From a virus, in IMG/VR virus record IMGVR_UViG_3300048058_000013: a stretch of DNA of 64,000 bases. One strand, given 5' to 3'. Shown one piece after another: positions 13,887-61,744 of this stretch; position 1 is the stretch's first letter, and every line of letters begins with the position of its first letter. Both the position numbers and the translations under genes were made by a program. The notes under the pieces are model-generated. The model did not search any database. It saw nothing but the letters and a program-made list of their open reading frames with translations, and was not told where the DNA came from.

Positions 13887-13927
13887 AGACTATAACCGCT
13901 CTTATATATCTTCTATCCGATAGTGTA

Positions 13928-15814
13928 TCACTTCCGACGATGCTTAATTATGTGCTTCTTAGGATTCACCGGAGCGACACGTCCTCGTACAACTGGCAAT
14001 CCACCGAGTTGGGCTGTAAAACCCTGCAACTCCTGAGCAATAGTTTGAGGTTTCGGTACACTGGTCATAATTGATACGGGCAATAATGCTCCCCGCATTG
14101 CTTCGGATGATAACTGGTCCATACGCTCCTGACGAGATATTCCAGGATCATGCATAGATGGGGATTCTGGAACATGGATCGGGATCAATGAAGTTACGCT
14201 GCGCGTAGCCGCCTGATTAGCTCCAATAAAACACAATCCCGTGGCGATTACTAAATCGTCAGTATTGCCCTTGCCTGGTTCGCAACCAGTCTTATGAGCC
14301 TTCAGATGGACGTAAATTGTGCATTCTTTATGCAAGCGGGGGGACTTGATTACCCAACCACCCTCACCCGTATTATCCACTAAAGTCTTATTAAGAATCG
14401 GCTTAGATGCAGCGCTGGTGTTGAATCCAATATCACTATACTTGATTGGCTTATTATATGGGTTCTTCTTCTGTTTCCGATATAGACTGTGATACATCAA
14501 GATTTCGTACAATTCTTGGCATACTGCTACTCCCATACCAGTTCGCTCAACCGTAGCGAAGGCATCATTATAATATCTGCCTACGTAATCAACCATGCGA
14601 GCGAAGACACGGGGTATGGTCCTAATTTGTAATTCTGCAACCTGTTCTTGAGTAGTAATGTCGAATACCTGGATAGTTGAAAAGTCATTCGAATCACCGC
14701 TCGCAATATCAACCCCCATACAATAACTGTGTGCCGGTTCTCCCAGATCCCCAGTTTTCTCATTGGGCTGTCGCCCATAATTTGGTTTGTCCCATACCCA
14801 CAAGCGATGTTGAAAATTCAATGTTGCGTGTTCTTCAGTATTGGGGTTGACATAATCAACCTCACCGATTGTCTTATAATCCTTACTGATTGTAGATTGA
14901 ATCTGTTGCAATGTCTGCCGACTCAAAACGGTATTACCAGTACCCAAGAAATCGGCTAAAATTTCCTGTCGGAACTTCGAAGAATCACCCTTCTGAGTCA
15001 GTTGTCGATATTGTTCCTCAAGCCATGGGCTCCAATATGGACCATACTTTTCAATTTCTTCCTGACCCACACACTTGCGTATACCGCGCGTTGGAGCGAT
15101 TAAATGATCCTTACCTGATAATTCATCCTTAAACTCAAGCTCCCAATCCATGTCCCACCAATTAATCATGATGGGTTTGAAATCATTATCATCAGCTTCA
15201 GCATCAGTCCACGTCTGCCAATACCAATTACCAATGCCCTTGGTTGTTGAAATGACGATCACTGAACCACCGTGCTGCAATGATGGCTGGCCTGCCGCCC
15301 ACATCTGATCCATATCAGGAACGAAAGCGGCTTCGTCCACAATATTCAAAGATGATGCGTGCGAACGGAGGGTATCTTTAGACGATGTCAAACTAATAAT
15401 GCGTGAGCCATTTGGAAATCCAACCTCGTGTTCATTGTCAATAACACGCGGCCAAATAGCTCTCATCCATTCAGGTAGATTATCATGAATAGTCTTGACG
15501 TTCTTACTCAAGAAATCCATAGCATCTAAGTCTCGCTTGGAAACGATCAAGATGCGTTTCTGGTTGAAGAACATCGCATACCAAAGAGCAAATCCGCCTG
15601 AAACGGTCGAAATCCCGCACTGACGAACCTTCTTAAAAATAGTATAGCGATTCCTAGTAAACTCTCGCAAGCACATTTTTTGGTACTGGAAGAGATTAAA
15701 AGGTATGATTCCTAGCTTAGGATGTTGGATCTTCCCAAACTGATCCAGGAAAAAAGATGGACTTTTCTGGCAGCGTAGGATAACCTGTTTTGTTACTTCA
15801 TCAATCTTTGGCAT
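13928..15814 (-). CDS. gp17: terminase large subunit (T4 gp17-like)
   Basis: KVRQCGIST (Walker A variant), NIVDEAAF (Walker B), ISTTKG, nuclease GVDIA..D..D and DDLV; no intein visible. Confidence 0.95.
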   Translation of the reverse strand: MPKIDEVTKQVILRCQKSPSFFLDQFGKIQHPKLGIIPFNLFQYQKMCLREFTRNRYTIFKKVRQCGISTVSGGFALWYAMFFNQKRILIVSKRDLDAMDFLSKNVKTIHDNLPEWMRAIWPRVIDNEHEVGFPNGSRIISLTSSKDTLRSHASSLNIVDEAAFVPDMDQMWAAGQPSLQHGGSVIVISTTKGIGNWYWQTWTDAEADDNDFKPIMINWWDMDWELEFKDELSGKDHLIAPTRGIRKCVGQEEIEKYGPYWSPWLEEQYRQLTQKGDSSKFRQEILADFLGTGNTVLSRQTLQQIQSTISKDYKTIGEVDYVNPNTEEHATLNFQHRLWVWDKPNYGRQPNEKTGDLGEPAHSYCMGVDIASGDSNDFSTIQVFDITTQEQVAELQIRTIPRVFARMVDYVGRYYNDAFATVERTGMGVAVCQELYEILMYHSLYRKQKKNPYNKPIKYSDIGFNTSAASKPILNKTLVDNTGEGGWVIKSPRLHKECTIYVHLKAHKTGCEPGKGNTDDLVIATGLCFIGANQAATRSVTSLIPIHVPESPSMHDPGISRQERMDQLSSEAMRGALLPVSIMTSVPKPQTIAQELQGFTAQLGGLPVVRGRVAPVNPKKHIIKHRRK

Positions 15815-48129: not shown

Positions 48130-48740
48130 TATGACCCTTCCTGGTTTTGTGGACCAGTAAATCTCTTCTCAAGACGATTAAACCCAACCACATCGCCGTC
48201 CTTGTTGAGTATAAACCTGAAAGCTGTCACTTCATCTCCATTAAATTGTAAAGTGACCTCTTGTGTCTTTAAAGTGGAGTAAGTTGGATTAATTTTATCA
48301 AGTTTGATAGTAACAGGTACAGGGTCAGTATCATTACGATGATACATATGGACATTGACAATATATTCCCCAGGAACAATACCACGAACTATTACTATCT
48401 CTTGATTTGCGTCGTACTTGACATTGCCATCTGGTGTATTAGTAACATCATTACGATGCCCCAAATCATCACGATCAAGATGTAATAGACCATTCTCTCG
48501 GCGACTGAAATAAACAAAATTTCCTACTGGATCAGAGACATAAGTGTCGACATCATCATTAAACTTAGCTGGCCACGTTACAACGATGAAAAATTCAGCT
48601 TTTGGTTTTGGTGCATCATGAGATTCAACCTTTGCCGGATTTATTTGGATTACAGCCAAAATGAATAATACAACGAAACCCAATCCCATCAGCAACAGGA
48701 TATCAAACCAACCCTGATTTGTGTGATAACGATACTTCAC
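48129..48740 (-). CDS. MotB/ExbD-like single-TM protein with extracytoplasmic YfaP/DUF2135-like domain
   Basis: N-terminal GWFDILLLMGLGFVVLFILAVI (TM with the conserved Asp); DDVDTYVSDP.GN.VYF...LHLDRDD.G...E.....PGEY.VNVHMY. Confidence 0.6.
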   Translation of the reverse strand: MKYRYHTNQGWFDILLLMGLGFVVLFILAVIQINPAKVESHDAPKPKAEFFIVVTWPAKFNDDVDTYVSDPVGNFVYFSRRENGLLHLDRDDLGHRNDVTNTPDGNVKYDANQEIVIVRGIVPGEYIVNVHMYHRNDTDPVPVTIKLDKINPTYSTLKTQEVTLQFNGDEVTAFRFILNKDGDVVGFNRLEKRFTGPQNQEGS

Positions 48741-49249
48741 TTCTTCTTTCTAGGTAATGGTGCCTTAGGCATCGGATTGGATTTGGCATGTACTTGTTCT
48801 TCTTGCTTAGCATCTAATGCATTCGTAAGATTAAACAATTGGAGTTTCAATAATGCAGAACTAACTAAGCCCATCAATGTTGTATACAACGCCGTACCAA
48901 GACCATCACCGATCTTATTCATCAACTCCTTAGCATTATTGGCATCGTAATTATTAAAACCACTTCCTAAGATCATAATGAAGCCAACGACGGTGCCAAT
49001 CATACCGATTGTCAGAACTTGATCACTGACGAGCCAACCGAAATTTAGACCCGTTTTGTCCATCTTATAGGTGAGACGACCAATCCACATGGTCATCGCA
49101 GCCAATATGGCCATGATCACGAATCCAAGGTAGGACTTATCCGCATTCTGGAGTTCATGAAAGAAGCCATATTGATGTGCGAAGAATACACCCACTGAAG
49201 CTGGAACAACGACGAGCCACCACCGTAGAAATGGTGCATGATTTCTCAT
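48737..49249 (-). CDS. MotA/TolQ/ExbB proton-channel family protein
   Basis: LTIGMIGTVVGFIMIL...IGDGLGTALYTTLMGL signature; 4 hydrophobic segments; start reassigned to 49249 (MRNHAPFL). Confidence 0.8.
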   Translation of the reverse strand: MRNHAPFLRWWLVVVPASVGVFFAHQYGFFHELQNADKSYLGFVIMAILAAMTMWIGRLTYKMDKTGLNFGWLVSDQVLTIGMIGTVVGFIMILGSGFNNYDANNAKELMNKIGDGLGTALYTTLMGLVSSALLKLQLFNLTNALDAKQEEQVHAKSNPMPKAPLPRKKK

Positions 49250-49251
49250 AC

Positions 49252-50022
49252 TTATACCTTTGAATACTTGGGGGCCCATTCCCCAGCACCATTCTGCACG
49301 AAGTCGGCGAAAATATTTGGCCACTTCTGCTTTGCAATACGTGCTACCTTATCAAATACTAAATGGATCTCCGACTCGGCCCCCGCCGCTGTACGCATTT
49401 CAATGATATGACGAAGAGATCTAAAATTGAATGAGGCACCGATACATGTGGATAATCCTATAGGTGCTGCACGCCTCATGGCAGATGTGATAATTTTCTT
49501 GAAATGAAAATTCTTAGTATTATCAAGATCGTAAACTTTAGCTAGATGCAATTGTAGTTGTTCAAGATCTTCGAATGTCTTTTCAAATAGAGCAGTAATC
49601 TTAGGATCATTAATCTCTTCGGGTAACCATAATCCAAGATCAGTTAACCTGACATATCGGAGAGATTCCTGACTGTAGGCGGCCCCAGCCCGATGCCGAA
49701 CGAGTTCGTGTGTGAAAACTCGGCTTACATCAGCGAAGATCCAATTCGTGACAGCATGCTCAGTAACCGAACCGTGTTTACTTTTAAGAATGTTATTAAG
49801 GTAGACATCATTGCCCTCACGAACCTTAGTGACATTAGCGTTCATTCCAGGAAACCATGAACGATAACACATCCGCCCGTACGCTTCCGTTAATTTTTCA
49901 CCGCCAGATGGTGCGTCTGTCTTCCACCCCTCTGCACCTGCGTGTTTTAGATAAGCTTGAAAACCTTCTTCATCAACTTGGGTTTGACCTACTAAGAAAA
50001 CCTGGGGCTCTGTCCTATGCAT
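49252..50022 (-). CDS. thyX: flavin-dependent thymidylate synthase
   Basis: H.SV.EH, SRVFTHELVRHR.G.AYSQESLRYV (RHRx7SxR), NFRSLRH.IEMR....E.EI. Confidence 0.96.
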   Translation of the reverse strand: MHRTEPQVFLVGQTQVDEEGFQAYLKHAGAEGWKTDAPSGGEKLTEAYGRMCYRSWFPGMNANVTKVREGNDVYLNNILKSKHGSVTEHAVTNWIFADVSRVFTHELVRHRAGAAYSQESLRYVRLTDLGLWLPEEINDPKITALFEKTFEDLEQLQLHLAKVYDLDNTKNFHFKKIITSAMRRAAPIGLSTCIGASFNFRSLRHIIEMRTAAGAESEIHLVFDKVARIAKQKWPNIFADFVQNGAGEWAPKYSKV

Positions 50023-50121: not shown

Positions 50122-50523
50122 TTAGACGTCGCGGAGCTCCTGATGGAGGTCGTCCGTCAGGTTGCCCGAGGTCTTCCTCAAGAAAGCATCGCGTCCGATG
50201 CGGATTGGGAACTGGAGATCCGACATTCCCTCTGCCGCGTCCTCGAACGTTGTTACGGTCTTCAGGAACCTAACTACTGGGAGACCGGTCTTCTGCTCGT
50301 CCACCGAAGTGGTTACGAGAGTCGAACCGTCACGCGTTGCGTCGATCAGAGTCTCATCAACACGTGCATCCGAGCTGTCCTGTCCGCCTGGGATGGACAT
50401 GACGAGTGGACGTAGACCTGGGAATCCGACTAGAGACAGAACTGCCTCATGCCGTAGATCCTGGCGATACGCACGCACTTCACGCTCAACAGCGATCGTA
50501 GTGTTTGCTGGCTGACTGGCCAT
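50122..50523 (-). CDS. hypothetical protein, probably highly expressed (possible virion/decoration protein)
   Basis: Strong SD (AAGGGGGTG), structured leader, own terminator; codon usage visibly resembles the capsid gene. Confidence 0.6.
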   Translation of the reverse strand: MASQPANTTIAVEREVRAYRQDLRHEAVLSLVGFPGLRPLVMSIPGGQDSSDARVDETLIDATRDGSTLVTTSVDEQKTGLPVVRFLKTVTTFEDAAEGMSDLQFPIRIGRDAFLRKTSGNLTDDLHQELRDV

Positions 50524-50627
50524 TAGTGAACACCCCCTTATGGGCCGAAAAAGGCCTTGTTAAACTTCGTGCTGCCTTCTTGAACCGCAGTTCAATGCCC
50601 ACAACAGGTGAGCAGAGGCAACATCTC

Positions 50628-51092
50628 TTACGTAGTAAATTTGCCTACATAATAGTAGAATGTAGGTATGAATATAATATTCAATTCCTCAGCGATTGAT
50701 ATTCGATGATTGCCATTCTGAAGCTTAGGAAGGCCTTTTTCAGAAATACGAACAATTGCTGGAAATTGGATTGACCAACCTTTGGCTTTTATAGACGCGT
50801 GTAGTGCATCCCATTTTGATATACCATCCAACCAGTCTTCTTGCTTCTGTTCAGCCCATAACTTCATCTCAGCATAGCCGCTCAATGATCTGCCTCGCCG
50901 ACGGCGGCGGCCTTTACGATATTTCTTAAGATCGTTAATTGGAGTTAAATAGATGAAATTAGTATCAATTACGATTTGGTGTTCTTTCCAGTCGCGATCA
51001 AGGTCGATTATTAGTTTAGGGATTTGTTTTGTTCTTAAAGGACCTGGATATTCCTTTAAAAAATTCTCAAATCTCTCAACGCCCCTACCCAT
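50628..51092 (-). CDS. ParB/sulfiredoxin-like domain protein
   Basis: LHASIKAKGW...PAIVR.......LQNGNHRISIAEELN...IP. Confidence 0.7.
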   Translation of the reverse strand: MGRGVERFENFLKEYPGPLRTKQIPKLIIDLDRDWKEHQIVIDTNFIYLTPINDLKKYRKGRRRRRGRSLSGYAEMKLWAEQKQEDWLDGISKWDALHASIKAKGWSIQFPAIVRISEKGLPKLQNGNHRISIAEELNIIFIPTFYYYVGKFTT

Positions 51093-51624
51093 TCTTCTTA
51101 TAGATTCTTGCTAACCTATCTTGTTCTTTAAAAACAAGATTATAAGACGAATAAACATCAGTATCCTCAAATGGATGTTGATATCCTGAGATTACAAGGC
51201 CCCCTCCATTTTTAACCATATCCGAAAGAGCAGTAATTTGTTGATTGAATAACTTAAACGGATAAAGTTTATCGCGATTCTTATCATTCATCCTCAACAC
51301 GTTTAGTGCGAATACAATGTCGAATGGACCATAATTTGGGAGCGTATCATGTCGTGAAATGATGAATTCAATTTGATGATCTTTATTCTCTTGACGAGCT
51401 ACTGCTATTGCTTTTTCATTGATATCAGCACCCAAAATACGACAATCAGGATGATATTTTCTCAGACTGTGACATTCATCCCCAAAACTACAACCAAAGC
51501 AGAGAATATAAGGATTATCCCATATCTCAGCAGTCTTCTTAAACATCTCTGGATATCGATCGGGACGTCTACCGGAACGTTCGCGTATTTTGATATCGAG
51601 AGGTTTATTGCCATTTGTCGGCAT
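51085..51624 (-). CDS. class I SAM-dependent methyltransferase
   Basis: ILCFGCSFGDE (motif I), ILGADIN, FDIVFALNVL, GGLVI. Confidence 0.8.
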   Translation of the reverse strand: MPTNGNKPLDIKIRERSGRRPDRYPEMFKKTAEIWDNPYILCFGCSFGDECHSLRKYHPDCRILGADINEKAIAVARQENKDHQIEFIISRHDTLPNYGPFDIVFALNVLRMNDKNRDKLYPFKLFNQQITALSDMVKNGGGLVISGYQHPFEDTDVYSSYNLVFKEQDRLARIYKKNG

Positions 51625-52279
51625 AATTTTTGAGGTCCGTTTGTATTAATTCCCTCTTCTTACGAAAAGGCGTTCCAAGATAGTGACAGAAAAGAGCATC
51701 ACGCATTCCTTCATGGCGATAACGCTTAGGACAATAGTTGTATTTCCTATCATCTAGATATTTCACGACAATCCCAGATTCAACAATCAGGTAATTCATA
51801 TAAGCCTGTTCATAATCAGGTCCGCTAAACGGTGTCCTACGACCATGAAGCCATAATAACGCCTGAATGTCCTTATTCCGTAGACTCATTAGACCATCAT
51901 TAAAGTAAACATCAGATGGCCATGTTATACCAGTCTGCTTTTCAATCACTCGAATGCATTTCTCCCTATAGCGCTGATTTTGTTTACTCCCCTGCCATCT
52001 AAAATTAGAAAGCGATGTCATCCCACTCAAATCTGGAGCATGCTTATCAACTAGAATGTCAATGTCAATATAAATGATGTTCTCAAATTTCTTCTCGATA
52101 GCATCTTCGAAAATCTTAAATTTCAAAAAATGGACAGATGGAAAGGGAGAGTAATTAGGATCATTATACTCCACAAATTGTAAATTATGTCTATCGGCAT
52201 AAGCCCGGATTAGAGGGATGGTTAGATTACCTATAGCCTGACTTTCTTCACCAACATTTAATACATAAACAGCGTTCAT
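51605..52279 (-). CDS. GT-A fold glycosyltransferase-like protein
   Basis: FLKFKIF, IIYIDIDILV (DxD), YFNDGLM, EQAYMNYL, FCHYLG. Confidence 0.75.
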   Translation of the reverse strand: MNAVYVLNVGEESQAIGNLTIPLIRAYADRHNLQFVEYNDPNYSPFPSVHFLKFKIFEDAIEKKFENIIYIDIDILVDKHAPDLSGMTSLSNFRWQGSKQNQRYREKCIRVIEKQTGITWPSDVYFNDGLMSLRNKDIQALLWLHGRRTPFSGPDYEQAYMNYLIVESGIVVKYLDDRKYNYCPKRYRHEGMRDALFCHYLGTPFRKKRELIQTDLKNYADKWQ

Positions 52280-53220
52280 TGCTTCCTCGCCCTTGTTCTT
52301 TTTTCTTGTCTTGCTTTCCGTCTCTTCTCTAAACGATTCTTCTTCCAGTTAAGACCTTCACATGGGATAATAGTGTTAGCATAAGTCTTGTCACACCATT
52401 GTTTATATTGCTCTTCATACATGATACTACGAAGATAGGTATCATTACCCAAACCCATAAAATTCTTCTTTATGGCTTCTTCAGCTGCTTGCCACCATAT
52501 GGCGTAATCAGGATGAGAATGCCACATAATAACAGCATCAAATTGTTCTTGAGTTAAACGCCAATAGGATCTAACCCTTCTCATAACAGGATTTTTAAAA
52601 GTCGCGACGTGAGCTTTTCTCCCATTTTTCATTAAGACATAGCTCATTGCTCGTTGATCATCTTTAACAAGTGTACAAAGATTAGCTACTGCTGCACAAT
52701 AAGGCCATCTATTTCTCCAACCCAATAAACCAAATTCAATATAATATGGAGTTATATTAACATCGAACTTAGGATCTACTTTACGATAATCCTCTACATG
52801 GATCTTCCACTGATTCAAATCACTACGGGTATTGAGACCAATAACTGATTCACCATCAACTACACTATGGAATGTGGTCATCCATCCTGGTGTCTTGTGA
52901 ATAGCATCAAATAGTTTGTCTATTTTGTTAACAAAAACTGTATCACAATCAGGATGTAAGACTCTAGTATAATTAATTTGTCCCATACCTGCCCAACGAG
53001 AACGCCAATGTTGTCGGAGCCTGTGATCTTTTCCACTACCAGGGACTATTTTAATAGTGGCAATCTTGCTATTAATGAATTCATTAAGATATGGAACAGA
53101 AGTTTTACCTAGACAAACAACGATTTCACCATCATAAAACCTTCTGAGGGTGTAAATCGATACAAGTAATTCTATAAGTGGCTTCTTACCACCACAATAG
53201 TAGACAACTGCATCGCTCAT
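52276..53220 (-). CDS. GT-A fold glycosyltransferase-like protein
   Basis: LLVSIYTLRRFY, LHPDCDTVF (DxD), EFG..G, DDQRAM, WH. Confidence 0.6.
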   Translation of the reverse strand: MSDAVVYYCGGKKPLIELLVSIYTLRRFYDGEIVVCLGKTSVPYLNEFINSKIATIKIVPGSGKDHRLRQHWRSRWAGMGQINYTRVLHPDCDTVFVNKIDKLFDAIHKTPGWMTTFHSVVDGESVIGLNTRSDLNQWKIHVEDYRKVDPKFDVNITPYYIEFGLLGWRNRWPYCAAVANLCTLVKDDQRAMSYVLMKNGRKAHVATFKNPVMRRVRSYWRLTQEQFDAVIMWHSHPDYAIWWQAAEEAIKKNFMGLGNDTYLRSIMYEEQYKQWCDKTYANTIIPCEGLNWKKNRLEKRRKARQEKRTRARKQ

Positions 53221-53223
53221 TTC

Positions 53224-53436
53224 TCATCCTAGAATTACTCGGTTCGTAGCTTGACGAATGATATCTTCGGCGGCCTTTTTCTGTAAGCCTTCTACGATAC
53301 CAATCCACTTACCAGATTCTCTGATTTCTATCCGCTGTAATCCCGTCAGGGGACTCTGGCCAGACATCGGGACTACACGAACATTAGAAGATCCAGCAAT
53401 CTTGATCCGCTGAACCGCTTCACTTAAGTTTAACAT
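53224..53436 (-). CDS. hypothetical protein
   Basis: 70 aa, coupled within the operon. Confidence 0.55.
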   Translation of the reverse strand: MLNLSEAVQRIKIAGSSNVRVVPMSGQSPLTGLQRIEIRESGKWIGIVEGLQKKAAEDIIRQATNRVILG

Positions 53437-53828
53437 TTTCTACGCTCTCTAATATGTATTGATTCAACCCATTGTATCTCGCGCACAGTCTCACCACGCC
53501 CCAATTTATTTGGTGTTGCGATAACAACTGCCGCCTCTGGTTCGCTTAATGGAGCTAACAACAATTTAGCCGCAATATCGTCGTCTTTGGTTTCTACTTC
53601 TATAACGAGCTCATCGTTAAAAAGACGAATATCCGTCACATGATGAGTAACAGTATTATCAATAAGTTTATTGTTGCTCAATACGCCCCCAATTAATTTG
53701 CCTTCTTTGATAGATTGTTTAAGTTTAGGATTATTTACTAAACTCTCTAAAACCTCACGGGGGTATATGTTACCATCTAGAGTAGGAAAATCGGCACATA
53801 TTCCTGTGCCTAGCACCATTTGCGTCAT
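53430..53828 (-). CDS. truncated prohead-protease (gp21) paralog, probably inactive
   Basis: TLDGNIYPREVL..GKLIG...VTHHVTDIRL.NDELVIEVE aligns with gp21 NSNGRIYENEIL..RRVLG...VSHLLTKLW.EGNEVIGELE; no SSRG. Confidence 0.55.
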   Translation of the reverse strand: MTQMVLGTGICADFPTLDGNIYPREVLESLVNNPKLKQSIKEGKLIGGVLSNNKLIDNTVTHHVTDIRLFNDELVIEVETKDDDIAAKLLLAPLSEPEAAVVIATPNKLGRGETVREIQWVESIHIRERRKC

Positions 53829-55072
53829 AGACTAGAAATATCTTTCCTGTCGAGGAAGACACTATCATCTATAGTCTTCCATGTCCCAATAAAGATTCCA
53901 CTCAGATTGATATTATGAAGAGCACAGAATTCCTTAACATCATCTGCTAGAATATAGTCCTTCAGCCAAGCTATGACACGCGGTGTCAATACTTCGTCTT
54001 TGGTGCGCTTTCCTTTTACACTACTATCGACATAATTCATGAAGTTGACGCTGATATAAACATCATCTCCAGTATTGTTAAATCTCAATGCCTCCTTCAT
54101 GTTTTGTTTACTGAAAGTGAAGATCCGTCGCGGAAGCTTAGTAAGACTTGTACACTCGAAGATAGGCTCCCCGGCATAATCAGAGATTTCTTCCCAAGTC
54201 AACTCACGCTGATCATCATAAAATCCACCAGAATCACCGCGTATTATATGACGATCGGAGGGCGGAGTGGTATTGAATTCATCCCAAGTTAGAATCTTGC
54301 GATCTGATTTACGGACATATTTGTTGTTATTAACTCGTATCGGAAATGTCCGGAAATTGATCACTACCGGGCCCACAACTGACGGAGGCAACAGTGCGTC
54401 ATCCAAAAAAGCGGAAACCGTGCAGTTGCGGCTAGTAGTCTTAGGCCAGAATTTGGTGAACAGCCCTAGCTGATAGCCTTGTGCTATTTCACCGAGTCCG
54501 CACTCCCCAGAATCAAGTCGACTCATTATCTCAATATTCGTATCGCAAAGGAATGGCCGAAGCGCATCTACATCTCGAGCCAATCGAGCGTCTGGGCGAC
54601 GAAGAACACGTCTAGCTCTTGCGGCACCTACACCATGTAGAGTAGAGCCAATATTTAAATTAGAACTACCGAGCTCCTCCTTGGGACGCCCCTCAAAATC
54701 AACACGACCACATTCGTAATCTAAATCAGTCTGTGTCACAATTGCTGCATTAGGATGGATAGCCAATTTAGAGGGGCCAACCTTAAATTGTGTAATCTCA
54801 CCTAGGATCTCTCTTTCAGAAAAAGCGCAGCCTGGGCTAATGTATTGCTTCTGATAATCATCTAAAGTCGTAATACTAGAAAGACATTGGTGCACGTATT
54901 CACGCCCATCGCCATGGGTAATAGTATGCGCAGCATTACTCATGAACGTATTCACAGCAAATGTTGCTTCGCCGCGCATATACTTCCAAATATGGGCCCC
55001 TCGAAGCCCCTTAGCGCTGCTACCAGCGCCGCCATCCATAACTATAGTGACCTTCCCCGGCTTAAAGATCAT
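53825..55072 (-). CDS. purZ: N6-succino-2-amino-2'-deoxyadenylate synthase (PurZ-type adenylosuccinate synthetase homolog)
   Basis: GAGSSAKG (Ser in place of PurA Asp13), NAAHT, GSTLHGVG, EIAQG, RTFPIRV.N, TKLPRRIFTFS, NFMNY (NxxN in place of the PurA GTP-binding KxD). Confidence 0.85.
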   Translation of the reverse strand: MIFKPGKVTIVMDGGAGSSAKGLRGAHIWKYMRGEATFAVNTFMSNAAHTITHGDGREYVHQCLSSITTLDDYQKQYISPGCAFSEREILGEITQFKVGPSKLAIHPNAAIVTQTDLDYECGRVDFEGRPKEELGSSNLNIGSTLHGVGAARARRVLRRPDARLARDVDALRPFLCDTNIEIMSRLDSGECGLGEIAQGYQLGLFTKFWPKTTSRNCTVSAFLDDALLPPSVVGPVVINFRTFPIRVNNNKYVRKSDRKILTWDEFNTTPPSDRHIIRGDSGGFYDDQRELTWEEISDYAGEPIFECTSLTKLPRRIFTFSKQNMKEALRFNNTGDDVYISVNFMNYVDSSVKGKRTKDEVLTPRVIAWLKDYILADDVKEFCALHNINLSGIFIGTWKTIDDSVFLDRKDISSL

Positions 55073-55087
55073 AGGTTCCCTCGCTTT

Positions 55088-55837
55088 TTAAGTTATCAAT
55101 GTATGAGTTGCCTGCCATCCCGGTGTGATAGTGGCAAGTCTCATGTACTTTTCTAATTGTGATTCTGGAACACCGTTTCGTAGCCATTTCGCACCATCCC
55201 ATCTGAAGCTAGCCTGCTTAAGGGCCTCTTTATGACGCTGGAAGCCCGGATTCTGGAAATCAGGACGCCCTTCGTGCCATGCTTGAATGAGATACTTCGG
55301 CTCATTTATCACTTTCATTAGCTCTAGTAAATCGTGTTTTGCGGCCATCTCACAACATAGTAAAGCATCAAACAAAGCTCGATGCGCTTTGGAGGTGGTA
55401 TTTGGCGTTAGCCCATAATCAAGCGCCAAGTGTTGGAGCCGAGTAGATCCAACCTTACGAACAAACTTGCCATGAGGGAGATCTTTATCAGTACACAGCC
55501 ATGATAATTTGGCGAATTCAGGCCAACGCTTAGTTACAAAACCCTTATCATATTCGGCATTATGGGCCACTATTAACTCAGGCTTGTAACTCTTGACTAA
55601 GGACCAAGGATTGAATTGATTATCATAGCCAAGTTGTGAGGCTTCGCGTGTGATTTGATGCACACTCTGGGCTTCATCTGACCATTTCTCTGTCTGATAT
55701 AGATCAGAATGAAGGGCTAGTAACTGCTGATGAGGTGGATCATATACCGCCTCATAAACGACACACCCTAATTCCACTATTTCATCAGTCTCAACATCGA
55801 GACCCGTAGTTTCAACATCAATTCCCAAGATAATCAT
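55088..55837 (-). CDS. DEDDh 3'-5' exonuclease (DnaQ/PolIII-epsilon-like)
   Basis: IDVETTG, VAHNAEYD, HRALFDA; start reassigned to 55837 (ATGA overlap). Confidence 0.9.
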   Translation of the reverse strand: MIILGIDVETTGLDVETDEIVELGCVVYEAVYDPPHQQLLALHSDLYQTEKWSDEAQSVHQITREASQLGYDNQFNPWSLVKSYKPELIVAHNAEYDKGFVTKRWPEFAKLSWLCTDKDLPHGKFVRKVGSTRLQHLALDYGLTPNTTSKAHRALFDALLCCEMAAKHDLLELMKVINEPKYLIQAWHEGRPDFQNPGFQRHKEALKQASFRWDGAKWLRNGVPESQLEKYMRLATITPGWQATHTLIT

Positions 55838-56211
55838 TCTAACATTTCCTTCGGAATAGGTTCCACCCAGTGTTGAGGGACCCACAAGTGCATTCCATCA
55901 TGAAACTTGATTTTATAATGCTTATGATCACGCTTTGCAACCACTCCAGGTTCTAAATGTTTCTTATGTTCTTTATTAATTACAAAGACGGGGGTACCTT
56001 CGGGTAATTCTGGAATTTGTGTTTTAAAAACTGGAACATGACTGACTACAATGACTTCACGTTCTAGATTCAATTTAGTCCAAAAGATCGAAGCGCACTG
56101 AGTGCAAATAATTGGGATGTATCCTACCTTCTCCCAAGATGACACACCAGATGTATTGGCTGTGCCACAATACGGACACTTAAAATTGTCAGAAACTGAA
56201 TCATTCGACAT
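55834..56211 (-). CDS. Zn-ribbon + SH3/KOW-like small protein
   Basis: CPYC...CTQC followed by G.PVFVI......GVV..RD..HYKIKF.DG..LWVP. Confidence 0.55.
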   Translation of the reverse strand: MSNDSVSDNFKCPYCGTANTSGVSSWEKVGYIPIICTQCASIFWTKLNLEREVIVVSHVPVFKTQIPELPEGTPVFVINKEHKKHLEPGVVAKRDHKHYKIKFHDGMHLWVPQHWVEPIPKEMLE

Positions 56212-56914
56212 CTTGACCCACCTGCCCTATGACCTTCACATCATCGACCGGTGGTTGATCCTCGTCCTTCTTCTCTTCTTGTTTAGGCTGAGCCGGACGT
56301 AAAAGCTTATTCGCTTGGTCTAGTGTAACGTCGAATCTACTTTCCCGTTCGCGCTCTAAGATACCCTGAGCTATAATGAACTCAATTACACCAGAAAACT
56401 TGATTGGAGTTGGTGTATACTTTCGAATACTAGTAATCAACTCAATAAATGACTCGATATCCGATCCCCATGGAGTAGTACGAATCATATTACAAGGATA
56501 ATCCTTAATAACTTCCAGAAGGCTCTTATAATTATCGAAATTAGACTTGGGGCCGATCGACCACCGAATCTCTGCCAACGGATTAACAGACCTAATGAAT
56601 TCTGTTAAAGCTTTCACTTCATCACGAGCACGAGCTTTAGTTAAGCCTAACGAAGCCGTGATATCGAAACCATCGGCAGAAGCTACATCCTGTCCGATAT
56701 CGCGTAGCTTCAGTAAACCAAAGTCAGTGCCACCAAGAGAAGCTATAATCTTATACTTGCTCTTTTTGAGAGTCCGATCAGTGACAAATGGTGCCAATAG
56801 ATCGGATGGAATAATAATTGCTGGACAATTGTTCCTTACGACGAACAAACTAGCAAAAGCTGGATTTGTACGCCGATCTACATTGAGTTCCATACGGGTA
56901 GTAACGTCGAACAT
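56201..56914 (-). CDS. divergent DeoC (deoxyribose-phosphate aldolase)-like TIM-barrel protein
   Basis: Ordered segments AIIIP / KIIASLG / ADGFDI / IRWSI / CNMIRTT / PIKFSG / RFDVT parallel DeoC AVCV.P / VCTVIG / ADEIDMV / KVILE / ADFVKTS / VKASGG / RIGTS. Confidence 0.45.
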   Translation of the reverse strand: MFDVTTRMELNVDRRTNPAFASLFVVRNNCPAIIIPSDLLAPFVTDRTLKKSKYKIIASLGGTDFGLLKLRDIGQDVASADGFDITASLGLTKARARDEVKALTEFIRSVNPLAEIRWSIGPKSNFDNYKSLLEVIKDYPCNMIRTTPWGSDIESFIELITSIRKYTPTPIKFSGVIEFIIAQGILERERESRFDVTLDQANKLLRPAQPKQEEKKDEDQPPVDDVKVIGQVGQDVE

Positions 56915-56923
56915 AATATTCCT

Positions 56924-57475
56924 CTATCGCTTATAAAATAATGGTAACCATTTAATACGATCAACTTCGACTTCACCAGCGTTCAGCTTCCTTAGAAAGA
57001 TAAACATCTCTTCCCATGTATAAAAGAATGTTTGTTCTAGACTAGCTGGCGTGGAAAAGACTGCTGGTGTCCAGGTTGATTGAAGACCATCAGGAATGCA
57101 GAGTAATACTGGTTTATTTTGCTGACCAGCCAGATAAATCTCTTCCCAAGTGCCGCTAGTCCATTTCTTAGGATGATAACAAATGACGAAATCAGCTGCG
57201 GTTACTGATCGGAGACAGAGATCCCGTAGAATCGTGTTGGCTTTGAAGATATCTTCCTTAGTGTATTCAGTTGAGTCACCACGTAGAACTGGTAGATATG
57301 AGCTTGGCTTTGCTCTACAGACTTCAGGGATCCAATCAGGCTTAACTAAAGGATCATATACGAAAATGTCGTATCTCTTGAGGTGTTCAGTTACCCGTTC
57401 CCGCCATCCTCTAGCACCTGGGTCTTGTTCGACTGGTCCAGCGAGGTAAACACGTTTATTCTTTAACAAATCCAT
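56924..57475 (-). CDS. nucleoside 2-deoxyribosyltransferase / N-glycosidase family protein
   Basis: VYLAGP....WR, YDP, D...V..ADFVI, SGTWEE...A....KPV. Confidence 0.8.
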   Translation of the reverse strand: MDLLKNKRVYLAGPVEQDPGARGWRERVTEHLKRYDIFVYDPLVKPDWIPEVCRAKPSSYLPVLRGDSTEYTKEDIFKANTILRDLCLRSVTAADFVICYHPKKWTSGTWEEIYLAGQQNKPVLLCIPDGLQSTWTPAVFSTPASLEQTFFYTWEEMFIFLRKLNAGEVEVDRIKWLPLFYKR

Positions 57476-57506
57476 ACGGCTTTATATACACAAGCCGTAA
57501 GTCTTG

Positions 57507-57694: not shown

Positions 57695-58696
57695 TTATCC
57701 CTTCTTGTTACCAAAAGCTTCCAATATTATATTCACCGCGTCAGCTTGATGTAAACGCGAAAAACTATCTACAAACTTATATTTATTGTAACTCGAGCAG
57801 ATTACTATCCTCTGTCGGTCAACCGCATTCAAGGTCTTAGCGGCATGATCATAACTCTCAGCTTCCCGACTAAAACGCTTCAAACGATTCTCATCAGAAA
57901 CATCCGGATTCTTGCCATAATAATGGAGTTTTCCACCTACCGATCCCATATCCAAACCAAAGATGTAAATCTTATCATATCCCATCCATACCGCAACCTG
58001 AAGATTGGCATACGTTGATGAACGGCCGATATAATATCCTTTAACGAGGTCCTTTGAAAACCCTTTCGCGGACAAACTCCGGATTAAAACCTGTTTTGGC
58101 CGACGCACTCGTACTGACGACGCATTTACAACAGTCCCATTATAAGAGTTCCAAATATCCTTATTACGAGCATATTGACTCTGATCACAAAATCCCCAGT
58201 ATGTTGATGGCCAGACACGGGGATCTGGCTTATTAATGCACATAATATCAATCTTATTGTGACCTCTTAATTGTTCTAAAGGTGCTTCACTTATAGAGGG
58301 GCCACAAGCTACCATTATTAAAGCTTTCCCACGCCCAATATCCTTTAATTTAGTGATAGCATCCCTATATTGTTCTAATAATTGTCCGTGCCTACGAGAT
58401 GCTGATTGTCTGTTCTCAGCCAACCTATGAGGAGATACCTTGACAACGCGCCTCTCCGGTGGTTTAATAACGACTTGATTTCTCTTCCAAGGAGATGGCT
58501 TGTGGAATTTTGGAACAGCCTTCTTTACATTCGGATTTGGTAGTGGGGATTGAGGCGATTGATGAACCTTACGGGGGTGAACAGCCTTTACCTGCCCTCG
58601 AGGCACAGCCATTGGTGGTCTATGCGCAACAGGCTTGCTTACCTTAATGTGAACTCTTTGAACCTGAGGTTTCTTAACGGATCTGTAATGGACCAC
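57695..58696 (-). CDS. DUF115/Maf/MptE-like (sialyltransferase-fold) protein with basic N-terminal extension
   Basis: VACGPSI, IMCIN, YWGFCD, SSTYANLQVAVWMGYDKIYIFGLDM. Confidence 0.7.
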   Translation of the reverse strand: MVHYRSVKKPQVQRVHIKVSKPVAHRPPMAVPRGQVKAVHPRKVHQSPQSPLPNPNVKKAVPKFHKPSPWKRNQVVIKPPERRVVKVSPHRLAENRQSASRRHGQLLEQYRDAITKLKDIGRGKALIMVACGPSISEAPLEQLRGHNKIDIMCINKPDPRVWPSTYWGFCDQSQYARNKDIWNSYNGTVVNASSVRVRRPKQVLIRSLSAKGFSKDLVKGYYIGRSSTYANLQVAVWMGYDKIYIFGLDMGSVGGKLHYYGKNPDVSDENRLKRFSREAESYDHAAKTLNAVDRQRIVICSSYNKYKFVDSFSRLHQADAVNIILEAFGNKKG

Positions 58697-58739: not shown

Positions 58740-59129
58740 CTATACTATAGGATTTACTATGCCTTCTTGTTCAGTCGCGATCTTTTGCTTGAGGTTGTTC
58801 AGAACAGTTCGCCGTCGCGAATCTTTGTTCATCTTGGAATAGAGATGCCTAAACACAGTTGTGGTAAGCAGGTTGAAGACCGGCGCACGACCAGGAGTGA
58901 AAGTGAGACGGCCATCCTTAATTTTATCAACAGTCAAGATAAAAGCTTCATGAGCCAATTCGTTATGTTCATCCTCGTTCTGTGGATGAAAGTGAATAGC
59001 TACACCATGACAGATTTTGTAAACCCCTTCAAGGAGGTGAGTCCACGCCACAGGATCTTTAGTCTTAATCCAATTAGTCCAGTTGACTTCGAGTTGCTTG
59101 GAGTCGACATAGAATTTCTTACTTGCCAT
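58740..59129 (-). CDS. short sigma-region-2-like protein (gp55-like)
   Basis: FYVDSKQL..., ELAHEAFI...KI...F.PGRAPVFNLLTTTVFRHL..KMNKD.RR. Confidence 0.55.
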   Translation of the reverse strand: MASKKFYVDSKQLEVNWTNWIKTKDPVAWTHLLEGVYKICHGVAIHFHPQNEDEHNELAHEAFILTVDKIKDGRLTFTPGRAPVFNLLTTTVFRHLYSKMNKDSRRRTVLNNLKQKIATEQEGIVNPIV

Positions 59130-59188: not shown

Positions 59189-60304
59189 ATGGCTAACCAA
59201 CTCGCACGCCTCTTCCTGCGCGGTTCTCTCATGAATGAGACGGCCAAGCTCGTTTCTCCCGAAGATATGAAGAAGGTTGATTCCCTCATGAAGGAAGCAT
59301 GGAATGATCCTGAGCTTCAGGGGCAGAAGCGCGAGTTCTGTATGGCTCTGAGTCGTACTATTGGTAATGAGTATAAGAGTATCGATGCAGGGATGCAGGA
59401 TTGCCAAATCACTTTTTGGAAGGCATCCCTTCTGGTATTGTTCCACGAATCTAAGCAGTGCGTAAATAAAAATTGCAGGGAACATTATACTACTACCCAA
59501 TCCAAACTGGAAAAGTGTGAAAAGTGTGGCGGGGATCTGGTTCTCAAATGGACTCCAAAGCCTCAGATCGCAGAAGATCCTATCAAAAGGCGGAAATTCT
59601 TTAAGGCAGTTATGTTCAACTATCTGCGACAGATCTTCCGCGAGAATAAGCCTCCTACGATGAAAGAGACCCGTATTGAAGGTGGTCTGGCTCCTGATGT
59701 GGCCCAACGTATCGTCAAGGCCATCCTGGAGAAGATCAGAGAATTCAACTACGAAATCGATAAGGTTGATGACGACCACTATACTATCAACTGTGAAACC
59801 GGATTGATCCCCCTCAAGCTCCTGCAACAGATTAACGACGTCCGGACCGATTTCGAACAACACGGCGTTCAGATTACCCTCGACTGGAAGACGATTACTA
59901 TTATCTCGCTGCTCGAGGTTCCCCCTACTATCAGCTGTAAGATCACTGATAAGATCTACGCTAAGTTTACGAGCTTTGATGGTAATAGCGGTGAAGATTC
60001 TGAAGGTGGATTCCGCGATCATTGTGAACACAAAGTACTCACGAGGATGAGCAAGGTCCAGCAAGATCCTATGGAATTCAGTGAGGCCCTTGATGTCATT
60101 CGAAGCCGCCTTCCCGACGACGCTCAAGAACTGTTCGACGTCATCACCAATACTCCTCAGGACTACACTGAGAAGTTTGGAACCGACAGATTCTATCGGT
60201 CTCATTTGGCACAGTATCTTGGCAAGGAGCCTAAAGAAATTGATTCTATGAAGGAAGTGATCAAGATCCATTGCTTGTCGATGCAACTAGGAATTGAAAG
60301 ATAA
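59189..60304 (+). CDS. sigma70-like factor with inserted zinc ribbon
   Basis: GMQDCQITFWKA (region 2.2-like), CVNKNC...CEKC insertion, FFKAVMFNYLRQIFRE, C-terminal L..IR.RLPDDAQELF...LAQYLG (region 4 HTH-like). Confidence 0.55.
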   Translation: MANQLARLFLRGSLMNETAKLVSPEDMKKVDSLMKEAWNDPELQGQKREFCMALSRTIGNEYKSIDAGMQDCQITFWKASLLVLFHESKQCVNKNCREHYTTTQSKLEKCEKCGGDLVLKWTPKPQIAEDPIKRRKFFKAVMFNYLRQIFRENKPPTMKETRIEGGLAPDVAQRIVKAILEKIREFNYEIDKVDDDHYTINCETGLIPLKLLQQINDVRTDFEQHGVQITLDWKTITIISLLEVPPTISCKITDKIYAKFTSFDGNSGEDSEGGFRDHCEHKVLTRMSKVQQDPMEFSEALDVIRSRLPDDAQELFDVITNTPQDYTEKFGTDRFYRSHLAQYLGKEPKEIDSMKEVIKIHCLSMQLGIER

Positions 60305-61140
60305 TGCAACTGGTGCTGGATAACCGGCAACTGCATCATTTCAGTGAGAGTTATCAAGATATTCTAATAAGATCTGGCCTATTCAATATAACCCGAACAC
60401 GGATGCCAGAATTTGACGCTTATCTTGAGTTAAGAGATAAAGTATATCTAAAATACCGTCGTAGAGACGGGGAGATGGCTTTCATTAAAATCAATGGTCA
60501 TCTAATAGTATTAGATTCACAATTCAAAGACGCAAAATCAATGGCCTTTGCGGAATTCGGGTTATTTAATCAATTTAAACCAAGCCTATATATTAAGTAC
60601 GAAAACAACAAACAACTATCCCAAAAAGTTGGATGTCCAGTCACTCCTTGGGTAATGTTTCCAGCTGGGTGGGATCTAGTTCAGAAATTTGAATGGGGTA
60701 AGATTACTCCAATCAGAACTGCTGTTCTAGCAAGTGGGAAGCATAGTCTTAAAATAATGAAAAGAGTTAAATGGTTTGATAAAGCTCGTGAATTAGATTC
60801 ATTTGATACTAAAGTAGCAATACCAACAGACAAATATTGTCGTTACCTAAAAAAGAGTAAATGGGGTGTCATTTTATCAAGAGGTAATGATAAGAACACA
60901 CGAGAATATGAGTTTATATCGAACTTTCTACCATTAGCATTAAATTATCATCCTGAATATAATTTCCCATTTCATCCAAACCAACATTTCTATTATATGC
61001 GGACTCCCGACGACCTAGAGAAATTAACGAAGGTCGATCCACAACCATACCATAAACGTTCTAAAGAATTGTGGAATACTTATTTCAGACCCGATATGGC
61101 AAGTAAAATGCTACTCAGAATGGCAGGAATTAAAGTTTAA
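60304..61140 (+). CDS. glycosyltransferase-like (GT-B/CgeB-like C-terminal domain) protein
   Basis: Y..YLKKSKWGVIL.RGN.KN.RE.E.....LP resembles the GT1/exostosin-type nucleotide-binding domain. Confidence 0.45.
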   Translation: MQLVLDNRQLHHFSESYQDILIRSGLFNITRTRMPEFDAYLELRDKVYLKYRRRDGEMAFIKINGHLIVLDSQFKDAKSMAFAEFGLFNQFKPSLYIKYENNKQLSQKVGCPVTPWVMFPAGWDLVQKFEWGKITPIRTAVLASGKHSLKIMKRVKWFDKARELDSFDTKVAIPTDKYCRYLKKSKWGVILSRGNDKNTREYEFISNFLPLALNYHPEYNFPFHPNQHFYYMRTPDDLEKLTKVDPQPYHKRSKELWNTYFRPDMASKMLLRMAGIKV

Positions 61141-61744
61141 TCACTCCAATCCCACATGAATAAGACTCATTAGAATCAATAATTTCCCAATGTTTGTATT
61201 GCTTCTTAAGTGGTTCCCACACTTCCGTAACTGAAGCATATGGATTGATTATATCATGGAATGCTACATATTTAGAATGATCTTTAACCTTATTAAAGTC
61301 ATTTCGTACTAATTTCATCGAATGTCTTGCATCAACAAAAGCCAAATCAAAATTCTCATTAAGTTGGATTGTTCGCGAATCACTCTGTCTAAATTCACAA
61401 CCAGAAAAACGCGCCTTATACTTCATATAATCAATTAACCGAGCCTTTCGGTCATATCCGACACTTCGGCGAAACCCAGGATTAGTCGCTCGAAGATAAC
61501 TGTCAGTAGTGAATAATGTACCACCATGAGCTACACCAATTTCTATGTAACTATTAACTTCATGTTCCGCCATAAAAATTAAAAATCGTGCAAACTCACG
61601 TGGGATCTGCCATAGCTGAAGTTTCGGAGGTGGATCTTTCCATCCCATATCGCAATATGGAGATAGAAATTTTGTTAAAAAATCAACCGACTTCAACTTA
61701 CTGCGGTGTTGTAAGAAATAATCATGCAAATCGTAACAACGCAT
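61130..61744 (-). CDS. class I SAM-dependent methyltransferase (Methyltransf_24-like)
   Basis: YIEIGVAHGGT, FDLAFVDARHS...V.NDF, VAFHDI. Confidence 0.85.
   Translation of the reverse strand: MRCYDLHDYFLQHRSKLKSVDFLTKFLSPYCDMGWKDPPPKLQLWQIPREFARFLIFMAEHEVNSYIEIGVAHGGTLFTTDSYLRATNPGFRRSVGYDRKARLIDYMKYKARFSGCEFRQSDSRTIQLNENFDLAFVDARHSMKLVRNDFNKVKDHSKYVAFHDIINPYASVTEVWEPLKKQYKHWEIIDSNESYSCGIGVIKL

Follow-up and report, generated by a model that had tools for sequence, protein, structure and literature searches.

The DNA analysed here is a window of 64,000 nucleotides from the virus record IMGVR_UViG_3300048058_000013 (IMG/VR). The system in question lies at 50628-57475, where a purZ gene stands among closely packed genes of the minus strand. 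PurZ is the enzyme that starts the synthesis of 2-aminoadenine (Z), a substitute for adenine in DNA. An earlier sequence-only reading had proposed that eleven genes of this region form a single operon for purine rewiring and DNA hypermodification. Our analysis leads to a smaller system. We take the functional core of the locus to be three genes, not eleven: a divergent PurZ, an NDT-superfamily enzyme and a DERA-fold barrel protein. On balance we favour a variant Z pathway built on this core, in which deoxyadenosine (dA) would be removed at the level of dAMP.

PurZ and its two companions

The protein encoded by purZ is of the succino-amino-deoxyadenylate synthase type, and its identification in the sequence-only reading is upheld by PDB matches, family profiles, diagnostic residues and a tree. 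Its best PDB matches are the PurZ proteins of phiVC8 (8e-28) and S-2L (2e-17), and the NCBIfam PurZ family (NF038379) is its top family, the profile being matched from position 1 to 292 of 293. In phmmer searches of the window PurZ queries gave 5e-34, whereas E. coli PurA gave no match at E 10. We aligned 44 members of the window PurZ clade with the PurZ of phiVC8 and PMBT28, the PurZ0 of Wayne and E. coli PurA. Ser18 of the window protein falls at the position of the catalytic Asp13 of PurA (S14 in phiVC8) and is Ser in 44 of the 44 members. In phiVC8 numbering, S14, P233, Y244, W252, F295 and Y298 are 98-100% conserved in the clade and positions T262 and S273 are Thr or Ser. Seven of the eight residues in the set that distinguishes PurZ (F12, T262, P233, Y244, W252, S273, F295 and Y298) are conserved, and the Phe and Tyr of the ATP site are kept in the window protein. 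The residues that separate PurZ from PurA were identified by a metagenomic association study (bioRxiv 10.1101/2025.10.22.683976). Identity of the window protein to canonical PurZ is about 27-30%, and it carries an insertion of ~29 residues and a longer C-terminus than characterised PurZ proteins. In a maximum-likelihood tree built with few reference sequences the clade joins Flavobacterium phage MaF61 in a group sister to canonical PurZ (97/93), with PurZ0 and PurA outside. We interpret the clade as a putative third deep PurZ lineage, with PurZ activity predicted.

The NDT-superfamily protein is a candidate DmtZ-like dAMP N-glycosidase or deoxyribose-5-phosphate transferase. It matches Pfam family PF15891 (E 9e-8), and its AlphaFold2 model (predicted local distance difference test score, pLDDT, 92.8) retrieves NDTs, YtoQ, MilB and DNPH1 in Foldseek, as expected from its earlier designation as an NDT or N-glycosidase. 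A profile search of the PDB with the NDT alignment gave no meaningful sequence match, and tblastn against isolate phages returned a weak match to one 595-kb uncultured phage. Among 14 family members Y10, E16, D95, T106, G108 and E112 are invariant, and Y10, D95 and E112 are the catalytic triad of the superfamily. Thr106 stands six residues before the nucleophile, where Wayne DmtZ has Ser; DNPH1 also has Ser there, and nucleoside NDTs have Asp, which binds the 5'-OH. Glu16, six residues after the tyrosine (Tyr+6), occupies the position of Asp12 of DmtZ, as Glu and not Asp. DmtZ has the triad Y6, N77 and E103, and its Asp12, also at Tyr+6, is essential and has been proposed to read the 6-amino group (PMC12884076). 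The Tyr/Asp/Glu triad, Glu16 and Thr106 favour a phosphorylated 6-amino-purine as the predicted substrate. We describe the protein as DmtZ-like in its predicted mechanism and do not call it a member of the DmtZ family. Just 5' of the NDT start codon, at 57476-57497 (-), there is a perfect 6-bp inverted repeat, CGGCTT-N9-AAGCCG, which occupies most of the 31-bp gap before the gene, with no obvious Shine-Dalgarno sequence; this repeat may be a regulatory hairpin.

The third protein is a DERA-fold TIM barrel, a candidate deoxyribose-5-phosphate-processing enzyme and the founding member of a distinct family. AlphaFold2 models it as a TIM barrel with eight strands (pLDDT 83.6), and the top 47 PDB entries retrieved with the model are all DERA or DERA-derived designs. 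Against DERA the VIA Z score is 19.6, with a root-mean-square deviation of 2.5 A over 192 aa (the next family reaches Z 17), and Foldseek gives E 1e-7 with a template modelling (TM) score of 0.61-0.68. No sequence match was found in Pfam (PF01791 included), NCBIfam, PHROG or the PDB, and tblastn against isolate phages gave none. With hhalign the family aligns to E. coli DeoC at a probability of 0.6%, which is not significant. A word-based homologue search returned 4 proteins only; an exhaustive profile search stopped at a self-contained family, 231 clusters at 50% identity, without reaching canonical DeoC. The DeoC-like label of the sequence-only reading therefore stands for the fold and falls for the sequence.

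Residues of the barrel were mapped onto E. coli DeoC with MAFFT and the strand register of the model, with no residue-level structural superposition, and on this mapping D16, D102 and K201 of DeoC correspond to E9, D84 and K172, and K167, the Schiff-base lysine of strand 6, corresponds to R145. Across 143 family members K69 is invariant, E9 is conserved at 94%, every member has an acidic residue at position 84, and the lysine equivalent to K201 is conserved and followed by an S-G loop. Positions 117/145/172 are Arg/Arg/Lys in 130 of the 143 members; six show a linked alternative, Cys-or-Ile/Lys/hydrophobic, in which the lysine is swapped between strands 7 and 6 (172 versus 145). This triple covariation indicates that the three positions belong to one functional site, at which a lysine is always retained. 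The site is predicted to differ from the canonical DERA arrangement, and aldolase activity is plausible.

How closely are these two genes tied to purZ? Related IMG/VR loci were gathered by an alignment-based scan, and 24 PurZ-anchored loci, the phage's own excluded, were scored with iterated hidden Markov models of each window protein. Neither a single-protein PurZ scan of IMG/VR nor a blastn search with the locus among isolate phages found a match. In 14-16 of the 24 loci, with PurZ identity as low as 42%, the NDT and barrel genes occur together, no more than ~3.6 kb upstream of purZ. Starting from the NDT family, a search in the opposite direction gave 18 loci. In 13 of 13 close NDT relatives the barrel gene lies directly downstream of the NDT gene, and in 12 of them purZ is within ~3 kb of the pair; in the thirteenth, the complete 320-kb genome L041, purZ is present 27 kb away. 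All 13 close pairs are on contigs that also encode a PurZ of the same clade. Four more distant NDT relatives have neither the barrel gene nor purZ nearby (purZ is absent within 8 kb), and one PurZ-clade locus, L030, is truncated and uninformative on the pair. Since the linkage of the three genes survives inversion and translocation, it is more than plain synteny. The sequence-only reading had tied its case to neighbours conserved with purZ, and for the NDT and DeoC-like genes such conservation was found, distant relatives included. A role for the barrel protein as a lyase that replaces PurB on the PurZ product was set aside, since, where the genes have come apart, it is the NDT gene and not purZ that the barrel gene accompanies.

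A candidate pathway and its alternatives

What might the three proteins do together? In the pathway that we favour, PurZ would condense dGMP and aspartate using ATP, and host PurB and kinases would lead on to dZTP. The NDT-like enzyme would act on dAMP, as DmtZ does, to give adenine and deoxyribose 5-phosphate, and it may also move the sugar phosphate onto free Z base. The barrel protein would consume or bind deoxyribose 5-phosphate and so pull the NDT reaction forward. Adenine deoxynucleotides would in this way be drained at the monophosphate level, replacing the DatZ dATPase, and the MazG, Dut or dCTP-deaminase-like genes of relatives could supply the deoxynucleoside monophosphates (dNMPs). 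The main reason for the proposal is that gene order mirrors metabolic order, with the glycosidase followed by the DERA-like enzyme. The variant pathway of the sequence-only reading, with other dA-depleting enzymes, survives in part: the linkage of the NDT and DeoC-like genes and the lack of DatZ and DUF550 speak for it, and the two glycosyltransferase genes, the methyltransferase gene and the ParB-like gene fall outside the system.

As the sequence-only reading had noticed, neither datZ nor mazZ/DUF550 is recognisable at the locus. In the window, phmmer searches with phiVC8 and PMBT28 DatZ, PMBT28 DUF550 and Wayne DmtZ-DutZ gave no match, and Pfam scans of 60 window open reading frames (ORFs) found no HD, MazG, DUF550 or dUTPase domain. 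The HD_3 and YfbR-like models had no match in the complete jumbo relatives G004 and G011; as positive controls, the small canonical PurZ phages G016 and G017 gave clear HD_3 matches, with a YfbR-like match as well in the one that was searched again. DUF550 was absent from the relatives searched, in a search that had no positive control. MazG is encoded by G004, G012, G001 and L006, a 72%-identical relative among them, and is absent from G011 and the window. Of the enzymes that, on the sequence-only reading, might be encoded elsewhere in the genome, MazG occurs in some relatives, and no DatZ-type HD protein or DUF550 was found in the complete ones. Both complete genomes have dUTPase-family genes, and in one of them a dCTP-deaminase-like gene, a thymidylate kinase gene and a dUTPase gene directly follow the NDT/barrel pair; a dCTP-deaminase-like or dUTPase gene stands beside the pair only in L009 and L041. 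The clade probably has no DatZ orthologue, and it may make its dNMPs with MazG or Dut-type enzymes, by analogy with the use of DutZ in PurZ0 phages.

Several points weigh against the pathway. The window PurZ scores 143.8 bits, under the curated NF038379 cut-off of 300 bits, and in 40 of the 44 clade members Ala replaces Phe12, the residue that makes contact with the 2-amino group in the PurZ of phiVC8. The fold of the NDT protein, to judge from its Foldseek matches, cannot tell a nucleoside transferase from a nucleotide hydrolase, and hhalign of its family against the Wayne DmtZ domain gives a probability of 16% (E 0.0015) over the D...G...E region only. At the K167 position of DERA the barrel family has Arg in 134 of 143 members (94%) and Lys in 9, which makes aldolase activity doubtful. 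The NDT and barrel genes are missing within 10 kb in five PurZ-clade loci, which are on fragmentary contigs. Much of the co-occurrence falls inside one syntenic phage lineage, in which SbcCD is also conserved upstream, and conserved gene order in one lineage is weak evidence taken alone. The complete relatives have weak generic HD matches, and as the window is part of a genome probably larger than 300 kb, a DatZ analogue could be encoded elsewhere. That the DNA of these phages contains Z is itself a prediction from their genes.

Taken to its full extent, the pathway would describe a clade of T4-like jumbo phages with a Z genome, made through a third PurZ lineage, an independently recruited NDT glycosidase and destruction of deoxyribose 5-phosphate by a DERA-fold protein, and copied by a Pol III alpha replicase without DatZ. 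We put this complete picture forward tentatively, as one that may well fail in some of its parts.

A first alternative is that there is no dedicated system. The region would be a dense stretch of nucleotide-metabolism and accessory genes, PurZ would work with host enzymes and with MazG and Dut encoded elsewhere, and the NDT/barrel pair would serve housekeeping of the dNMP pool, as DNPH1 does, or a salvage route unrelated to Z. Short junctions are indeed usual in the window, synteny reaches SbcCD and beyond in the same lineage, and MazG and Dut are found elsewhere in relatives. The behaviour of the pair itself points both ways. It stays with an MptE-like gene and not with purZ in the complete L041 genome, and distant NDT relatives lack purZ within 8 kb, yet every one of the 13 close pairs is on a contig that carries this PurZ clade. 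Moreover, the acidic Tyr+6 residue parallels dAMP-specific DmtZ, and an NDT-family enzyme is already proven in the Z metabolism of other phages (PMC12884076). We regard this alternative as unlikely, although it is the most probable of the rivals.

A second alternative accepts the enzyme and questions its purpose: the PurZ-like protein might serve auxiliary purine synthesis on another substrate, such as the supply of adenylate or of a non-genomic nucleotide, and not Z-DNA. With Ser in place of the catalytic Asp of PurA throughout the clade, the other PurZ-specific residues kept, and the window protein found by PurZ queries and not by PurA, we consider this improbable, even though the score under the curated cut-off, the insertion and longer C-terminus and the change of Phe12 to Ala would all suit such a role, as would the lack of DatZ and of a DpoZ-type PolA or PrimPol alongside a Pol III alpha replicase. 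The pathway centred on dAMP removal remains our preferred reading of the three genes.

Neighbouring genes and genomic setting

The eleven ORFs of 50628-57475 are all present on the minus strand (Table 1), and the overlaps and short gaps of 15 bp or less that had been reported for them were recovered on recomputation. From the NDT gene onwards the ten junctions measure +9, -11, -4, +15, -4, -7, +3, -4, -20 and -8 bp, assuming the ATG start of the exonuclease gene at 55837. Close packing is usual here: 41 of the 69 minus-strand junctions in the window are at most 15 bp (median 10), and the window is nearly all one co-directional, dense gene array. Ten short junctions in series (about 0.59^10) are somewhat tighter than average, not exceptional. 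The run extends upstream of 57475 to a 61-aa ORF (31-bp gap) and then a 305-aa gene (2-bp gap), and it ends downstream at a 104-bp gap (50523-50628). A sigma-70 promoter/terminator scan of the window gave 22 versus 20.9 and 9 versus 6.4 in shuffled sequences, with no enrichment. As this consensus scan does no better than shuffled sequence, the term operon stays an assumption. Nor is a single operon in the functional sense established for the eleven genes; the exonuclease slot is variable, and the four-gene block at the downstream end is missing in relatives.

Table 1. Genes of the locus and other assigned features of the window, in order of position.
Position	Strand	Length (aa)	Feature	Details
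3332-4843			gp23 major capsid protein	T4-type structural gene
7799-8488			S77 prohead protease	T4-type structural gene
49252-50022	-		ThyX thymidylate synthase	Thy1 E 6.9e-36
50122-50523		133	Gene next after the four-gene block
50628-51092	-	154	Possible ParB_N/Srx-like protein	Arg-rich patch
51085-51624	-	179	Class I S-adenosylmethionine (SAM) methyltransferase	Small-molecule type
51605-52279	-	224	GT8-like glycosyltransferase	Glyco_transf_8 E 2.4e-4 (below cut-off); phrog_28746
52276-53220	-	314	GT-A-fold glycosyltransferase-like protein	Basic C-terminal tail
53224-53436	-	70	Small conserved ORF	No Pfam or PHROG family match
53430-53828	-	132	Truncated paralogue of T4 gp21-type prohead protease
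53825-55072	-	415	Divergent PurZ, predicted activity	Succino-amino-deoxyadenylate synthase type
55088-55837	-		DEDDh (DnaQ/epsilon-like) 3'-5' exonuclease	RNase_T 8.5e-12
55834-56211	-	125	Zn-ribbon protein	CxxC...CxxC; Zn_ribbon_Elf1 E 0.0013
56201-56914	-	237	DERA-fold TIM barrel	Candidate deoxyribose-5-phosphate-processing enzyme
56924-57475	-	183	NDT-superfamily protein	Candidate dAMP N-glycosidase or deoxyribose-5-phosphate transferase
57695-58612	-	305	MptE-like/WaaZ-like protein	Length from ATG (333 aa from GTG at 58696)
58740-59129	-	129	Conserved upstream gene	Homologues beside the MptE-like gene

The genes that share the run with the core are kept in relatives to different degrees. 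Between the barrel gene and purZ, a Zn-ribbon gene recurs in about 8-10 relatives; its product has the expected motif and a weak Elf1-type match. The exonuclease also matches phrog_192 (DNA polymerase exonuclease subunit, 7.8e-24) and the 3'-5' exonuclease and epsilon families of NCBIfam. It holds the same position only in L003 and L027 (PurZ-anchored) and L033 (NDT-anchored) among the related loci, the slot being taken elsewhere by a dCMP deaminase, dCTP-deaminase-like or homing endonuclease gene. The exonuclease probably proofreads for the split Pol III alpha replicase of the phage. After purZ comes the gp21-like gene, in about 10 relatives, followed in 7 by homologues of the 70-aa ORF. Aligned by hhalign with residues 55-141, the N-terminal half, of the window's own S77 protease, the 132-aa protein gives a probability of 92.8% (E 3.9e-7). 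We rejected its identification as the actual prohead protease, since the genuine S77 enzyme is encoded at 7799-8488. Profile searches of the PDB with the gp21-like or the MptE-like alignment gave no meaningful sequence match. The earlier calls for these four genes are supported, by the motif for the Zn-ribbon part of the first, by the family matches for the exonuclease, by the hhalign result for the gp21-like protein and, for the small ORF, by conservation in relatives.

Upstream of the NDT gene, the MptE-like protein matches PF01973 (E 1e-5), as it does in 9 of 13 relatives, and TIGR04437 WaaZ (2.9e-6). The MptE-like and 129-aa genes accompany the NDT/barrel pair in about 15 relatives, and both stay next to the pair in L041 too, where purZ is 27 kb off. 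Both genes may be part of an NDT/barrel module. Further upstream there are another weak glycosyltransferase-like gene (60304-61140, +) and a gene of the Methyltransf_24 type (61130-61744, -).

The four genes at the downstream end of the run have a different history. The 314-aa protein has Atlas scores of 0.97-0.98 to viral nucleotide-diphospho-sugar transferase clusters and a structural TM score of 0.6-0.7 to GT8, so that of the two GT-A calls this one is supported through Atlas, and the other, for the 224-aa protein, leans on its weak GT8 match. The methyltransferase call is confirmed by matches to Methyltransf_31, _25, _12 and _11 (E 3e-10 to 3e-7); no DNA methyltransferase family in Pfam or NCBIfam was matched. 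For the 154-aa protein a weak ParB_N likeness (Atlas, ParB_N-carrying clusters at 0.94, TM 0.53) speaks for the ParB-like call, and the lack of any Pfam or NCBIfam match speaks against it. Homologues of the four genes are absent from the surroundings of purZ in the 24 related loci, except on a 7.75-kb contig of the phage itself, which breaks off within the second glycosyltransferase gene. Gene-order conservation with purZ thus fails for this part of the run. A weak homologue of the 314-aa protein is encoded elsewhere in L005. Since in three close relatives (L003, L005 and L027) a homologue of the 133-aa gene directly follows the 70-aa ORF, and in L003 is itself followed by thyX as in the window, the four-gene block is an insertion in the phage lineage. 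Judged by this comparison of gene order, it is a separate, recently inserted accessory cassette.

Does the cassette act on DNA? Glycosyltransferase-like and methyltransferase-like genes are scattered at variable sites in the window and its relatives, and the glycosyltransferases of the window are GT8/Nucleotid_trans-like, with no match to a recognised DNA glycosyltransferase family. A glycan-related function is more likely than a DNA-related one. The glycosylation or methylation of Z or another base envisaged in the sequence-only reading finds no footing, the four genes being unlinked to purZ and the methyltransferase generic, and hypermodification of Z by the cassette is unsupported. That the eleven genes form one DNA-hypermodification operon, in which Z or another base would receive further modifications from the glycosyltransferases, the methyltransferase and the ParB-like protein, is very improbable: translational coupling joins the four genes to the purZ block, the basic tail of the 314-aa protein and the Arg-rich patch of the ParB-like protein could bind nucleic acid, and non-homologous glycosyltransferase genes lie near purZ in L005, L007 and L009, but close relatives have nothing at the site of the block, the methyltransferase families matched are generic or small-molecule ones, the ParB_N likeness is weak, and the window yielded no hydroxymethylase or other enzyme that activates a base.

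What kind of phage carries this locus? Besides the gp23 and S77 genes, the window encodes two gp19-like tube proteins, gp15, sheath proteins and an SbcC-like protein. Relatives of the window PurZ, numbering in the hundreds, are encoded on large uncultured contigs. Two of the related IMG/VR records have terminal repeats and are complete, at 341 and 320 kb; they belong to T4-like jumbo phages. Fragments of 80-98 kb from relatives are rated 22-39% complete, and the window therefore most likely stems from a T4-like jumbo phage that is uncultured. Relatives replicate with a split Pol III alpha, which agrees with the DnaQ-like exonuclease of the window. A gene for a protein of the PhyH/2OG-Fe(II) oxygenase family (6401-7063, -; E 9e-14) lies in the head-gene region, with the S77 protease on one side and the capsid region on the other, and an M23 peptidase-domain protein (1242-1850, -; E 4e-12) is encoded downstream of the major capsid gene.

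The stretch from 49 to 59 kb is a nucleotide-metabolism island. In relatives the same slot, or the space beside it, contains genes for dCMP deaminase, a dCTP-deaminase-like protein, thymidylate kinase, dUTPase and ThyX. The island of relatives often has homing elements: a 402-aa ORF of L029 (8737-9945) combines dCMP deaminase, LAGLIDADG and helix-turn-helix domains, and the ribonucleotide reductase of L008 (13716-17834) has an intein. Near thyX the window encodes a MotA/TolQ/ExbB-family protein (48737-49324, -; Pfam E 2.3e-8) and then two predicted membrane proteins of ~200 aa. Where the window has these membrane-protein genes, L003 has a DAHP_synth_1 (KdsA-like) gene after thyX (13405-14187), which, taken with the WaaZ-like gene, is a hint of sugar chemistry of the Kdo type.

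Comparison with known Z systems

What are the implications if the pathway proposed here is correct? The Z-DNA trait would then also belong to jumbo T4-like phages, a group abundant in metagenomes, and there would be a third, independently assembled way to exclude adenine. A Pol III-type replicase would tolerate or even prefer dZTP. Two new enzymes would be attractive for biotechnology: a PurZ whose 2-amino pocket differs, and the DERA-fold family, in which the active site is rearranged. The analysis also corrects a tempting reading in which neighbouring glycosyltransferases and methyltransferases are decorators of Z.

To our knowledge, the only phages in which the biosynthesis of Z-DNA has been characterised are small siphoviruses and podoviruses, with PurZ or PurZ0, DatZ/MazZ or DutZ/DmtZ, and PolA or PrimPol. 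In the literature we found no description of a module of NDT, DERA-like and PurZ proteins, nor of PurZ in T4-like or jumbo phages; the DERA-like partner and the setting in such phages are the two elements for which no precedent came to light. Canonical Z clusters, such as those of cyanophage S-2L, vibriophage phiVC8, Salmonella phage PMBT28 and Acinetobacter phage SH-Ab 15497, combine PurZ with DatZ and MazZ/DUF550. The window shares with them a PurZ that has Ser at the Asp13 position of PurA and the ATP-site Phe and Tyr, encoded among nucleotide-metabolism genes. It differs from them in the low identity of its PurZ, which falls in a separate deep clade, and in that an HD-type DatZ and DUF550 were not found in the window or in complete relatives. 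The viruses differ as well: the window most likely comes from a jumbo myovirus of the T4-like kind whose Pol III alpha is split, whereas the canonical clusters belong to siphoviruses or podoviruses of 40-70 kb with DpoZ or PrimPol.

The barrel protein has the same TIM architecture as DERA/DeoC, its closest solved fold, with residues that align to D16, D102 and K201. Unlike DERA/DeoC, it has no sequence match to the family, mostly Arg at the K167 position and an invariant Lys69 of its own.

NDT enzymes have been tied statistically to dZ contigs in aquatic metagenomes, with a proposed role in dA depletion (bioRxiv 10.1101/2025.10.22.683976). The enzymes of that study are nucleoside transferases of PF05014, which occur alongside DatZ and PolA without adjoining purZ, in contrast to the window NDT, which belongs to PF15891, adjoins purZ and occurs without DatZ.

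The nearest parallel is provided by the PurZ0 phages, among them Ghobes, a Gordonia phage, and Wayne, an Arthrobacter phage, which use DutZ and DmtZ (PMC12884076). DmtZ, published in 2026, is an NDT-family dAMP hydrolase and deoxyribose-5-phosphate transferase (PMC12884076), so that removal of dAMP by an NDT-family enzyme in Z phages is no longer new in kind. The window NDT has marginal similarity to Wayne DmtZ, is paired with PurZ and not with PurZ0, and has no Dut protein fused to it or adjoining it in the window. Its gene is always followed by the DERA-fold gene, a partner of a kind not reported for PurZ0 phages. In both systems, however, an NDT-superfamily gene adjoins a gene of the PurZ type and encodes a Tyr/Asp-or-Asn/Glu triad, and in some relatives of the window, as in the DmtZ/DutZ phages, a gene of the dCTP-deaminase/dUTPase fold stands beside the NDT/barrel pair. 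The window NDT further resembles DmtZ in its acidic residue at Tyr+6 and in the small hydroxyl residue, in place of Asp, six positions before the nucleophile.

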